The notes: a model not told the origin generated them from the sequence alone. Positions 27,886 through 61,646 are shown, counted from the stretch's first letter. The stretch: 64,000 nt of DNA from Promethearchaeota archaeon (GCA_030603385.1 JAUVXW010000001.1:192001-256000); one strand, 5' to 3'. Made by a program: numbers and translations.

Positions 27886-30873
27886 ATGAGCTATACGTTC
27901 TCACGCACTAAAATGATAGAAAAAATCAAGTTTGGTTTGCTTAGTCCAGATGAAATTCGTAAGATGTCTGCTGCCCGAATTATTACGGCTGACACTTATG
28001 ATGAGGACGGACTCTGAATTTTATTTCGGAATTCAGACGTAATTCCCATCCCATCTGGCTTAATGGACCAACGGCTCGGAACGATTGAGCCTGGTCAAAG
28101 ATGTCAGACATGTGGTAATTTAGTTTCAAATTGTATGGGTCATTTTGGCCATATAGAATTAGCACGTCCCGTTATTCATGTAGGATACTCAAAGAAAGTT
28201 TTAAAAGTGTTACGCAGTATCTGTCCGGATTGCTCTCGTTTAATGCTAACTGAAGAGGAAAAAGAGGAATTCAGACAAGAGCAAATAAAACATAGAAAGA
28301 TTTTTTTCGAGGGGGATGAAGAAGCTTCGAAACTCGTATTTAAACGTGCCAGAAAAGCTAAAAATTGTCCTTATTGCGGTACTAAGAAGAAAAAAATTAT
28401 TATTGAGAAACCTACCACATTTTATGAAGAAGAAGAAGGAAAAGGTTCCCGCAGAATAACACCTATAGAGATTCTAGAACGTCTTAAGAAGATGAGTGAT
28501 GTTGATCTTAGAATCTTAGGTATTTCCCCTGAAAATGCTAGACTTGAGTGGGTAATTTTTACCGTGCTCCCTATCCCCCCTGTATGTGCAAGACCATCAA
28601 TTACTTTAGATAGTGGTATCCGTTCTGAAGATGATCTAACACATAAATTAGTAGATGTTATACGAATTAATCAAAGATTAAGAGAAAATATTGATGCAGG
28701 AGCACCTCATTTAATTGTAGAAGATCTTTGGGAATTATTACAATATCATATTACCACATATTTTGATAATCAAGTTTCTGGGATACCACCTGCAAGACAT
28801 CGTTCTGGAAGAGCCCTTAGAACCCTAACTCAAAGATTAAAAGGTAAAGAGGGTAGATTTAGAAGTAATTTAAGTGGCAAAAGAGTGGATTTTTCTGCGA
28901 GAAGTGTAATTTCGCCTAATCCATATATAAGTATAAATGAAGTAGGTGTACCTATAGAGATAGCGAAAATTTTAACTATCCCCACTAATGTTAATGATTG
29001 GAATATTGAAGAAATGAAACAAATGGTCCTAAATGGACCTGTTCATCATCCTGGAGCTAATTACATCATACGGAGTGATCGTAGAAGAATTGACCTACGT
29101 TATGTTAAAAATAGAAAAATTATTGCAGATATGTTAGCACCAGGATTCACTGTTGAGCGTCATTTGGATGATGGAGACTTAGTATTATTTAATCGTCAAC
29201 CATCGCTCCATAGAATGTCGATAATGGCACATGAAGTAAAAATCATGGAAGGGCGAACTTTTAGATTAAATTTAACTGTATGCCCTCCTTATAACGCTGA
29301 TTTCGATGGAGATGAAATGAATTTACATGTACCTCAAAGTGAAGAGGCTCGAACAGAAGCAGAATTGCTTCTTAAAGTACAAAACCACATATTGTCACCC
29401 CGTTTTGGAGGTCCAATTTTAGGAGGAATTCAAGATTTTATTTCAAGTGTTTTTCAATTTACGAGTAAAAACTCTCTATACAATAAAAAAGAGGCATTAA
29501 ACTTATTTTATATTGGAGGGATATTTGAAGATAAACCTGATTTTAGTTTAGAACAATTAACTCCTATAACAACTGATCCAGAACCTTTATATTCTGGTAA
29601 AGATATATTCAGTAGCTTATTTCCTGATGATTTAAACTTAAAAGTTAAATCAAAATTTTGTAAAAAATGTGACGTATGTGAAGAAGAAAACTGCGCTTAT
29701 GATGCTTATGTTGTAATTAAAAATGGAAGGCTAATAACTGGAACAATAGATGAAAATTCCTTCGGTGCTATGCAACCAAATAGTATCTTGGCGCGAATTA
29801 TTAAGGATCATGGAAATGCGCGTGGTAGACAGTTTTTAGATAGCGCTACTAAACTGTTGCTGGGCGTTATTCGGAAAAATGGTATGACAATGGGATTGGA
29901 TGAGGTTTATGTACATGGTCATGCATATGATGTAATTGAAAAAATATTAAAGGACGGAAATGAAGAGTCTAACAAACTAATAAAAGCCTTTCGTGAAAAT
30001 GATACTACTATTCTTAAAAGAGCACCTGGCCGTTCTATGAGAGAAACTTTGGAATTGAGAATACGCGGGGCATTGGCAGAGGCCCAAAAAGAAGCAATAG
30101 AATCAGCAGCTGATTTCATAGGAGATGAAGCACACTCAGTTATTATGACTAAATCTGGAGCAAGAGGAAATTTATTAAACTTAGGAATGATGTCTGCTGT
30201 TGTGGGACAACAAGCTATAAGAGGTGAAAGAATTAACAGAGGTTATGTAGGGAGTAGGAGAACATTACCTCATTTTAAAGTTGACGACCTTTCACCAAAA
30301 TCTAGAGGTTTTGTATCTTCATCTTATCGAAATGGGTTAAAACCTGTAGAATTCTTCTTTCATGCAATGGGTGGGAGAGAAGGACTCGTTGATACAGCAG
30401 TAAGAACATCTCAGAGTGGATATATGCAGAGAAGATTAGTAAATGCATTACAAGATATGGTTGTAGAAAATGACGGAACTGTTAGAAATTCTGACAAGAA
30501 CATAATTCAGTTTAAATTTGGCGACGATGGTATAGATGCAATGCATACTGATCATGGTTCAGCAGTAAATTTGGATGTGTTATTATTAAAAGCAAAAGCT
30601 CTTGATGTAGGAGAGATTCGTGAAGAAATTAAGCAAGAATCTATCTCTCGAAAAGCTACTTCTAAAGCAAAAAAAGCTATTGATGTGAAACCTAAGGAAA
30701 AGGCTCCTCCAAAAGAAAAGCCCAAAAAAGAAATAAAACCTAAAAAAAAAGAAAAGGTTCATGATGAAGATACATCGATAAAGCAATTTGAAGACGAAAC
30801 TGGAAAGAAGGCTATTTGGAGAGGGAAAGAAACAAAAGCTTATATAGATTGGAAGCAAGAAAAATTAGGATAA
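27886..30873 (+). CDS. rpo1N: RNA polymerase subunit A' (Rpo1N), two exons (27886-28012 + 28043-30873), about 985 aa spliced
   Basis: Exon 1 encodes [42 protein letters not shown]; exon 2 [12 protein letters not shown]..., [28 protein letters not shown]. Confidence 0.95.
28013..28042 (+). other. Predicted 30-nt BHB intron in rpoA' mRNA
   Basis: In-frame TGA 28015-17 inside hairpin CUGAAUU/AAUUCAG; central helix ACGG/ACGU (3 of 4 bp), bulges ACU and AAU; excision gives DEDG-L-PIP. Confidence 0.8.
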
Positions 30874-30928
30874 GATAGAAATCAGAACATTTTGTAGTGT
30901 AAAATAAAATTTGTAAGGTTTATAGAAG

Positions 30929-59455: not shown

Positions 59456-59609
59456 GAGACACCGCGGATATACTTCAATTTTTTTTTTACTGCTTTTTTT
59501 TTAGAAAAAATCAAAAGATATTATTCATTAGAATATCTATAGACTTATCTTTTATATATTATATTTTGTATAAATTAAAAATTAATTAAACATAATAAGT
59601 AAAAGTTAT

Positions 59610-61646
59610 ATGATTATGGACTTTCAATTACAAACTGATTTTGAACCTGCTGGTGATCAACCCTTAGCTATTCAAACTCTAACCAAGAATATTAAAAATG
59701 GTAAAAGGTTTCAAACCTTATTAGGTGCCACTGGGACAGGAAAAACTTTTACAATTGCTCAAATAATACAAGAAGTTCAGAAACCAACATTAGTAATGTC
59801 TCCTAATAAAACATTATGTGCTCAATTGTATAATGAGTTTAAAGAACTCTTTCCTGAAAATGCCGTTCACTACTTCGTTTCTTACTATGATTATTATCAG
59901 CCAGAAAGAATATTTCATTAAGAAATATCTCTGGAAGCATATATGCCTGTTTCAGGGATGTTTATAGAAAAAGACTTCAGTGTGAACGAAGAAATAGAAA
60001 GATTACGATTGGCTGCCACTCACGCTATCAGAACAAGAAAAGATGTTATAATAGTTGCTTCTGTTTCTTGTCTTTATGGAATTGGGAACCCGGAGGTTTG
60101 GACAGCAGTTTCTCTCAGTTTAGAAACAGGGCAAGCTATTAACCGAGGGGAAATGTTGAAAAGACTTATTAGTATTAATTATGAAAGAAATAATATCGAT
60201 TTTAAACCAGGTATAGTAAGGGTAAGAGGAGACATTATAGATATTTGGCCAGCATATTTAATTAATGCTATACGAATTTCACTTTTTGGGGATGAGATTG
60301 AATCAATTCAAGAGATACATCCAATTTCAAGTGAAGTATTAAATGATTTACCTAATTGCCGAATTTTCCCTGCTACTCATTTTATAATTCCAGAAGAGAA
60401 TAAAGTTAAAGCTCTTGAATCAATAAAGATTGAATTGAAAGATCAACTTGATAAATTTAGGAAAGCGAAAAAGTATGCCGAGGCACAGCTATTAGAAAGA
60501 CGCATTAAATTTGATCTGGAAATGTTAAGAGAAATGGGTTGGTGTAAAGGTATAGAAAATTATTCTAGGCATTTAGATAGAAGAGCTCCTGGTTCTCCTC
60601 CCATGACATTAATCGACTACTTCCCAGAAGATTTTCTTATTGTAGTTGATGAATCTCATGTTTCAATTCCTCAAATTCACGGGCAAATAGGTGGAGATAG
60701 ATCTCGTAAAAAAAATCTTGTGGATTATGGTTGGCGTTTACCAAGTGCCTATGATAATAGGCCCCTTACTTTTGATGAATGGGAAGATAAAATTAAATAC
60801 TCAATCTTCATGAGTGCTACACCCGGAGATTATGAATTAAAGAAAAGCGGGGAAATTTCAGCAGAACAAATAATTAGACCTACTGGTCTCGTAGATCCTC
60901 AAGTTGAGGTAAGACCTGCGAAGAATCAAATTGATGATTTGTTAGGAGAAATTAGAAAAGTCGTAGACAATAATGGTAGAGTTTTAGTTACTACACTTAC
61001 AAAGAGAATGGCTGAAGATATTGCGGATTATTATTCCGAGTTGGGGGTTAAGATAGAGTATTTACACTCAGAGGTAGATACTGTAGAAAGATTTGAGATT
61101 TTAAGGCAATTAAGATATGGAACTCATGATGTCATAGTTGGGATAAATCTATTGAGAGAGGGATTAGATCTACCTGAAGTTAAATTAGTTGCGATTTTAG
61201 ATGCTGATAAACTTGGATTTCTACGCGATAAAAGGTCTTTAATTCAAACAATTGGAAGAGCTTCTAGAAACGTAGAAGGGAGAGCAATTTTATATGGGGA
61301 TAGAATGTCTGAAGCGATGAAAACGGCAATAGACGAGACCAATAGGAGGAGGAATATACAGATTGCGTACAATGAGAAAAATAATATTACACCCCAAACA
61401 ATTAAGAAAAATATTTTAAAATCTTTATCTGAGGAAAAAGAATATAAAGAAAGAGAAGTGAAAAGATTAAAGCAAAGCGTTAAAGCGAAAATAGAAAGAT
61501 TACAAGAGGAAGGGGATATTGAGATTGTGATTGAATATCTTGAAAATAAGATGTATATGGCTGCTAAGGAACTTCGATTTGAAGACGCAGCATATTTGCG
61601 TGATAAAATTAAGGAGATAAAAAAGGCTTATAAAAAAACATCATGA
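59610..61646 (+). CDS. uvrB: Excinuclease ABC subunit B, two exons (59610-59906 + 59937-61646), about 668 aa spliced
   Basis: [26 protein letters not shown]|[27 protein letters not shown]-terminal UVR domain; both ORFs are in one frame. Confidence 0.95.
59907..59936 (+). other. Predicted 30-nt BHB intron in uvrB mRNA
   Basis: Central helix CCAG/CUGG (4 of 4 bp), bulges AAA and AAG, inner stem GAAUAUUUC/GAAAUAUCU with TAA in the loop; excision gives QPE-AY. Confidence 0.88.

Follow-up and report, generated by a model that had tools for sequence, protein, structure and literature searches.

Short stop-containing inserts in rpoA' and uvrB of a Promethearchaeota archaeon as candidate bulge-helix-bulge introns of messenger RNA

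Two housekeeping genes, rpoA' for the largest subunit of RNA polymerase and uvrB for a repair helicase, are each interrupted by a 30-nucleotide (nt) insert with an in-frame stop codon in a 64,000-nt stretch of DNA from a Promethearchaeota archaeon (GCA_030603385.1 JAUVXW010000001.1:192001-256000), which we call the window. We read both inserts as mini-introns in messenger RNA (mRNA) coding sequence, which would be cut out at a motif of the bulge-helix-bulge (BHB) kind by EndA and closed by RtcB, the enzymes of transfer RNA (tRNA) splicing, and we put the probability of this reading at about 0.8. We infer the cutting and joining from the anatomy of the inserts, the predicted junctions, structural covariation, coding constraint on the exons, precise loss, and the enzyme genes present. 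The window is C4:192001-256000 of a metagenome-assembled genome (MAG) of a Loki-type Asgard archaeon (G000; 3.9 Mb, 58 contigs, GC content 31%, 94% complete). Window positions are counted from its first letter, and the features of both genes lie on the plus strand.

The first-pass annotation, made from the window alone, had described both inserts as sharing one layout, namely 1 nt, a 23-nt hairpin, 4 nt that pair back to the upstream exon, and a final 2 nt, with an in-frame stop in each. Both inserts were found as described, at 28013-28042 and 59907-59936. In the mechanism that we propose, the 4 nt before the last two bases of exon 1 would pair in the pre-mRNA with the 4 nt before the last two bases of the intron. 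This 4-base-pair (bp) central helix would be stacked between the 23-nt intron hairpin and an exon-exon helix, which would leave two 3-nt bulges on opposite strands. EndA would then cut each bulge after its second base, and RtcB would join the exons, restoring frame and conserved motif; without splicing, translation would end inside the insert. In its strict form, hBHBh', such a motif is flanked by an exon-exon helix (h) and an intron helix (h'), and (alpha-beta)2 and epsilon2 enzymes also take the relaxed HBh' form.

Exon 1 of rpoA' (Rpo1N) spans 27886-28012 (42 codons plus 1 nt), from an ATG at 27886 that is preceded by GGAGG at 27871-27875, and it covers positions 2-34 of the Pfam family RNA_pol_Rpb1_1. 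The frame from this ATG meets a TGA at 28015-28017, and the same frame reopens past the insert. Exon 2, with its stop codon, spans 28043-30873 and takes up the family at positions 38-312 (Rpb1 domain 1), with domains 2-5 behind it; the Pfam coordinates are continuous over the break. The intron (28013-28042) consists of a T, the hairpin at 28014-28036, ACGT, and AA. The hairpin has 7 Watson-Crick pairs and is lengthened by two U.G pairs. The exon strand of the central helix (28007-28010, ACGG) pairs with 28037-28040 (ACGT) at three of four positions, G28010.A28037 being mismatched, and the bulges fall at 28011-28013 (AC/T, the slash marking the predicted cut) and 28041-28043 (AA/T). An outer helix of 28000-28006 with 28044-28050 forms 6 of 7 pairs. 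When the insert is excised, the sequence reads GAC GGA C/TT CCC (DEDG-LPIPSG), identical to intron-less relatives, with an ambiguity of 1 nt in the cut position. The gene has a single match in G000, and its exon 2 shares 97% identity with a relative's full-length RpoA'. A protein collection was searched for a full-length RpoA' near-identical to that of G000, in spliced or intron-less form; none was found, and the best match stood at 97%.

Exon 1 of uvrB (59610-59906, 99 codons) ends in YYDYYQPE. The frame from 59610 meets a TAA at 59919-59921 and likewise reopens past the insert, in exon 2 (59937-61646, stop codon included), which holds the Pfam domains UvrB_inter, Helicase_C, UvrB, and UVR. 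The intron (59907-59936) is made up of an A, the hairpin at 59908-59930, CTGG, and AA. Here all four positions of the exon strand CCAG (59901-59904) pair with CTGG (59931-59934), so that the pairing to the upstream exon claimed in the first-pass annotation is complete in uvrB and reaches only 3 of 4 positions in rpoA'. The bulges are 59905-59907 (AA/A) and 59935-59937 (AA/G). Excision gives CCA GAA/GCA (YYQPE-AYMP), again identical to intron-less relatives, and the cut position is ambiguous by 3 nt. Aligned same-genus genomes without the inserts show a gap of exactly 30 nt at each site, which sets the insert boundaries without recourse to structure. The predicted junctions agree with the DNA of intron-less relatives in both genes, as expected from the claim that the BHB cutting rule would restore frame and motif. 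uvrB also has a single match in G000; the annotation had raised intact second copies as a sign of pseudogenes, and each gene is present in one copy. Both inserts are relaxed BHB motifs, the rpoA' one being non-canonical, and helix h' has 7-9 bp in both.

To place the inserts among relatives, we compared rpoA' with 19 correctly oriented loci of the same genus and with 80 public loci, and uvrB across 8 insert-carrying genomes and 73 public loci without insert. The same uvrB site is filled in these 8 MAGs, which come from several studies, by 29, 30, or 32 nt, and it is empty in the 73 public loci. The inserts fall into type A in four genomes (30, 30, 30, and 29 nt), type B in three (32 nt), and type C in one (32 nt). 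Inserts of 29 and 32 nt, found in 4 of the 8 carriers, shift the frame, which excludes read-through and calls for removal. Between carriers, exon 1 and exon 2 each have a ratio of nonsynonymous to synonymous substitution rates (dN/dS) of 0.05-0.1 at dS values of 0.5-1.0 (~0.06-0.08 for exon 1 among intron carriers), so both exons are under purifying selection and these genes are not pseudogenes.

Alignment of orthologs, a check suggested in the first-pass annotation, showed presence/absence variation as well as covariation. The covariation sets are small, with 7-8 related sequences each, and their statistics are to be read with kinship in mind. With the 8 uvrB carriers aligned, 84.8% of helix cells are paired against 67% in shuffles, and none of 500 shuffles matched this value; pairing falls to 25-56% when the register is slid by 1-3 columns. 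Six pairs have changes on both sides. In three relatives, an exon A-to-G change is accompanied by an intron T-to-C change, turning CCAG/CTGG into CCGG/CCGG (alignment pair 12-43). In the uvrB gene tree, types A and B form one clade (98/92), and the intron-less MAG WORC5 nests next to a carrier of type A (100/100); its position there without an insert argues for precise loss. The history that this pattern implies is a single gain and one precise loss, with type C gained separately.

At the rpoA' site of the window, none of the 19 same-genus loci has the insert, and 79 of the 80 public loci lack it too. WORC5 does carry the insert; there, the two U.G pairs of the stem are U-A and the stem is kept. 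We also observed that intron presence is discordant in close relatives: WORC5 (L074, L172) has this rpoA' insert and lacks the uvrB one, and ABR03 (L071, L165) shows the reverse.

A second rpoA' site, located after GHFGH, was found by homology alone and holds a 30-nt insert in seven genomes. The hairpin sequences of these inserts are unrelated, and the layout of 1, 23, 4, and 2 nt is common to them, with a fully paired central helix in all seven. At this site 96.1% of cells are paired, 6 pairs have changed on both sides, none of 500 shuffles reaches the score, and slid registers pair at 31-49%. A further insert lies 4 nt beyond it in three genomes, of 85 nt in G022 and G026 and of 35 nt in G025, again with 4/4 central helices. 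In G025 (L034, G025:C62:7300-8300, minus strand), the 30-nt and 35-nt introns are split by a 4-nt micro-exon, ATAG, and the central and outer helices of the second intron are complete only once the first has been removed. This arrangement implies that the adjacent introns would be spliced in order. As for chance, 2.5% of random positions in G000 have a 4/4 central helix, or 7.2% if the best of three registers is taken. Such a helix is found in 4 of 5 homology-defined intron origins (binomial probability ~1e-4), and the central-helix match in the inserts exceeds chance.

Two other length variants, both at the 5' end of rpoA', were considered and not counted as introns. The 86-nt insert of L237 resembles a duplicated gene start and had no BHB at any register tried, while for the 59-nt insert of L241 the start codon was not located.

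The enzymes that such splicing would use are encoded in G000. The EndA family PF01974 matches twice (99 and 71 bits), in paralogues of ~200 amino acids, and the RtcB family PF01139 matches once (558 bits). The EndA matches lie in the regions C44 18795-19019 and C9 36254-36502, and the RtcB gene at C39 18568-19875. One EndA paralogue is closest to PDB chains of Aeropyrum and Pyrobaculum EndA, entries that we take to be heterotetramers, and the other is divergent. The presence of two paralogues suggests the broad-specificity (alpha-beta)2 type. Asgard EndA has been reported as this type with an L1 loop (PMC5829648), and relaxed BHB motifs are handled by (alpha-beta)2 endonucleases (PMC5829648, PMC2738675). 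ARAGORN identified 18 tRNA genes in G000, 7 of them with introns, whose bulges have the same A-N/N form as those of the mRNA inserts. Most tRNA genes of this genome are probably hidden by non-canonical introns; the count fits a 2026 preprint that reports heavy, non-canonical interruption of Asgard tRNA genes (bioRxiv 10.64898/2026.10.13.758758).

Elsewhere in G000, eight further introns were verified. Three were found by scanning and Pfam, in a nucleoside phosphorylase gene (C10 126771-126800, 30 nt), an AAA ATPase gene (C26 16566-16597, 32 nt), and the gene of a LOR protein (C55 17369-17398, 30 nt). The other five came from scanning, in rnhB (C17 18136-18165, 30 nt), a Zn-ribbon protein gene (C2 1888-1917, 30 nt), psmA (C17 41993-42024, 32 nt), the uL11 gene (C41 68091-68127, 37 nt), and a histone gene (C6 1296-1325, 30 nt). 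For several of the eight, the full hBHBh' structure is at or near the minimum-energy fold. This brings the number of verified mRNA introns to at least 10 in 3.9 Mb, with a modal length of 30 nt, in a census that was partly made by eye and in which cases were chosen by conserved motif or Pfam continuity. Introns have been gained and lost between close relatives. A donor search in this genome found no significant similarity of the introns to each other or to other places in the genome, except for one pair of paralogues on contig C2. These are diverged Zn-ribbon genes ~1 kb apart with a 30-nt intron at the same site, CPK/CG (899-928 and 1888-1917). The two introns are 89% identical over 27 nt and by eye look more conserved than the surrounding coding sequence. 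The verified introns were also seen to fall where their proteins are most conserved, in the motifs DEDG/LP, GHFGH/IEL, YYQPE/AY, DEAG/RGP, DKHS/TGG, DEIDKAD/IE (Walker B), and HAGRK/K. This siting may reflect ascertainment bias, or it may be that only precise loss is tolerated at such places.

Several results weigh against the EndA/RtcB reading. The rpoA' motif is relaxed, with its three of four central pairs, and the BHB-constrained fold (-11.8 kcal/mol) competes with a minimum-free-energy structure at -18.4, an extended hairpin that is 6.6 kcal/mol more stable. In uvrB the outer helix is nearly missing, with a single pair between 59900 and 59938, and the central helix has a C.A mismatch in two relatives. 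Genome-wide scans that combined BHB search and merging of open reading frames (ORFs), under strict and relaxed settings, gave 759 matches against 733 in the shifted control. As gene boundaries dominate the matches, the scans as a whole are not enriched, and the class must accordingly be small. Only the 29-32-nt class is in excess, with 40 matches against 29-30 in shifted controls (~10). The number of mini-introns per genome is likely ~10-20, not ~100. The extrapolation in the first-pass annotation from two introns in 64 kb to many genome-wide was thus too high, given 10 verified cases in 3.9 Mb. Finally, the analysis of window positions 25500-33500 drew on a DNA run and three metatranscriptomes. 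One RNA contig lacks exactly 28013-28042. It was rejected as evidence of rpoA' splicing, since its variants match the type of G019 and ABR03, whose DNA has no insert at this site. Transcripts of this type, which does have the uvrB intron, occur in the RNA runs X15 and X16.

Broken genes or artefacts would be one alternative, whether pseudogenes, assembly errors, or two separately translated polypeptides, and gene callers would indeed give a truncated RpoA' from M28063 and two UvrB fragments. Assembly error is difficult to reconcile with the recurrence of the inserts in independent MAGs and with the DNA run, a kind of check that the first-pass annotation had proposed: it spans 28013 at depth 6.9 and keeps the rpoA' insert, with no deletion. 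Pseudogenes would not be expected among single-copy genes, of which rpoA' is essential, or at the low dN/dS found on both sides of the break. Separate polypeptides do not fit breaks within a conserved motif and a continuous Pfam domain, nor an exon 2 that has no start codon or Shine-Dalgarno sequence at the junction, nor the frame-shifting inserts in half of the uvrB carriers. We regard this explanation as scarcely credible, the least probable of those weighed. Translational bypassing fares hardly better and is very improbable. Under it, the insert would be kept in the mRNA, and the ribosome would leave before the stop and land 29-32 nt downstream. Like phage T4 gene 60, the inserts show a stop and a hairpin behind the take-off codon; the uvrB of G000 has GAA before the insert and GAA at its end. 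The take-off and landing codons are unmatched, however, in rpoA' (CTC vs ATT) and in the uvrB of G021 (GAA/AAA) and G011 (GAA/GAC). Bypassing would also leave unexplained the conserved 4-bp exon-intron helix and its covariation, the exact 3-nt register of the bulges, the 85-nt intron, and the two introns that stand 4 nt apart.

A closer competitor keeps removal at the RNA level and assigns it to other machinery, either a different structure-specific endonuclease with a ligase or a hairpin-triggered excision. EndA is the predicted cutting enzyme here, the motifs of rpoA' and uvrB are relaxed, and hairpin-triggered, RtcB-dependent excision of inserts is reported from animals (PMC12779559). What speaks for EndA is geometry: a 4-bp helix, opposite 3-nt bulges, and predicted cuts after base 2 recur at every independently found site, and the same geometry is seen in the tRNA introns of G000. 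No match to the Ire1 RNase domain PF06479 was found in the 94% complete G000, a weak test given that the control genomes likewise had none. Other machinery is unlikely, though less so than bypassing or broken genes. The claim that the tRNA splicing machinery acts on mRNAs in this organism is strongly supported by comparative data as far as the BHB reading goes, through inserts of 29, 30, and 32 nt at one site, covariation, selection, loss, two EndA genes with RtcB, and eight more introns; the suggestion of many cases genome-wide is overstated. Regulation by splicing in the manner of Ire1 and XBP1, also proposed in that annotation, is pure analogy.

Three other observations were made in the window. 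In run X15, an RNA contig that stems from a relative leaves out 272 nt of intergenic sequence at 33134-33407, upstream of an rpS12-like ORF, with ends GA..GC and a depth of 265. This is probably a strain indel, with a large intron in an untranslated region (UTR) as the alternative. At 25418-27685, three ORFs in the same frame are parted only by single stops, at 25775-25777 and at 25988-25990. A fourth ORF has an out-of-frame overlap at 25418-25433. The four are rich in K and E and of low complexity, and no convincing BHB was found in this region. Rfam returned nothing at gathering score over 27000-62000.

If the inserts are spliced as we infer, it is routine for protein genes of this Asgard lineage to be interrupted and then mended in the RNA by tRNA-splicing enzymes; the genes concerned include those of a histone, a ribosomal protein, a proteasome subunit, and the catalytic subunit of RNA polymerase. 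Archaeal mRNA splicing would then widen from one gene, cbf5, to a class of genes in the lineage closest to eukaryotes. Cells without a nucleus would have to keep ribosomes off unspliced messages or tolerate them. Near-identical genomes would make the recent gain and precise loss of introns accessible to study, and gene callers, by producing truncated or split genes, would leave Asgard proteomes and marker-gene sets systematically mis-annotated. A more far-reaching view is possible and is put forward tentatively, as something we would not yet bet on. In it, an entire Promethearchaeia genus, among the closest prokaryotic kin of eukaryotes, would keep in its core housekeeping genes a steadily renewed stock of mRNA mini-introns that depend on EndA, each having a central helix fitted to its own exon and no detectable donor. 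An as yet unknown process would make these introns de novo at conserved coding sites, and ordered splicing over a 4-nt micro-exon would already have evolved.

Among known systems, the T4 gene 60 gap resembles the inserts as a short untranslated stretch with a stop and a hairpin inside coding sequence. It differs in that it needs matched take-off and landing codons, a match not found here, and in that no RNA is cut. HAC1/XBP1 splicing (Ire1 with RtcB or Trl1) is likewise independent of the spliceosome, with cutting of a structured RNA, RtcB-type ligation, and a frame that is changed or restored. It relies on the Ire1 nuclease and twin 7-nt loops and is regulated by stress, whereas the inserts show no sign of regulation. 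Haloferax volcanii HVO_1309 has a BHB intron in its 5' UTR, and this mRNA was shown by sequencing of circular RNA and by in vitro cleavage to be a substrate of EndA, but the intron is 46 nt long and breaks no reading frame (PMC7714728). Archaeal BHB introns of tRNA and ribosomal RNA (rRNA), including those of Asgard tRNA genes with several introns (PMC5829648; bioRxiv 10.64898/2026.10.13.758758), share with the inserts the motif, the predicted enzymes, and a central helix that is half exon and half intron. The preprint's conclusion that tRNA introns were gained repeatedly without identifiable donor agrees with our donor search in G000, and adjacent introns that seem to be spliced in order are common to tRNA genes and the rpoA' of G025. 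The difference is in the host, an mRNA whose frame must be restored, so that splicing must precede or compete with translation. The preprint covers tRNA genes, and the word 'mRNA' is absent from its text.

The nearest relative is the intron of the crenarchaeal cbf5 pre-mRNA (Watanabe 2002; Yoshinari 2006; Yokobori 2009, PMC2738675), which has been stated to be the only confirmed BHB intron in archaeal coding sequence (PMC2738675, PMC7714728). For Asgard archaea, the literature searched did not yield any account of BHB introns in mRNA. Like the inserts, the cbf5 intron is short, lies in coding sequence at a conserved catalytic motif, shows a relaxed BHB that is cut between residues 2 and 3 of the bulges, is linked to hetero-oligomeric EndA, and has been gained and lost by lineage. 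It concerns one crenarchaeal gene and is confirmed by cDNA, whereas the inserts affect at least 10 genes in one Asgard genome and are described here from DNA. The modal 30-nt layout of 1, 23, 4, and 2 nt that the inserts share and the several introns per gene in relatives also set them apart. Compared with cbf5, then, what is new is the many genes per genome, the new phylum, the uniform 30-nt class, the several introns within a gene, and the recent gain and loss.

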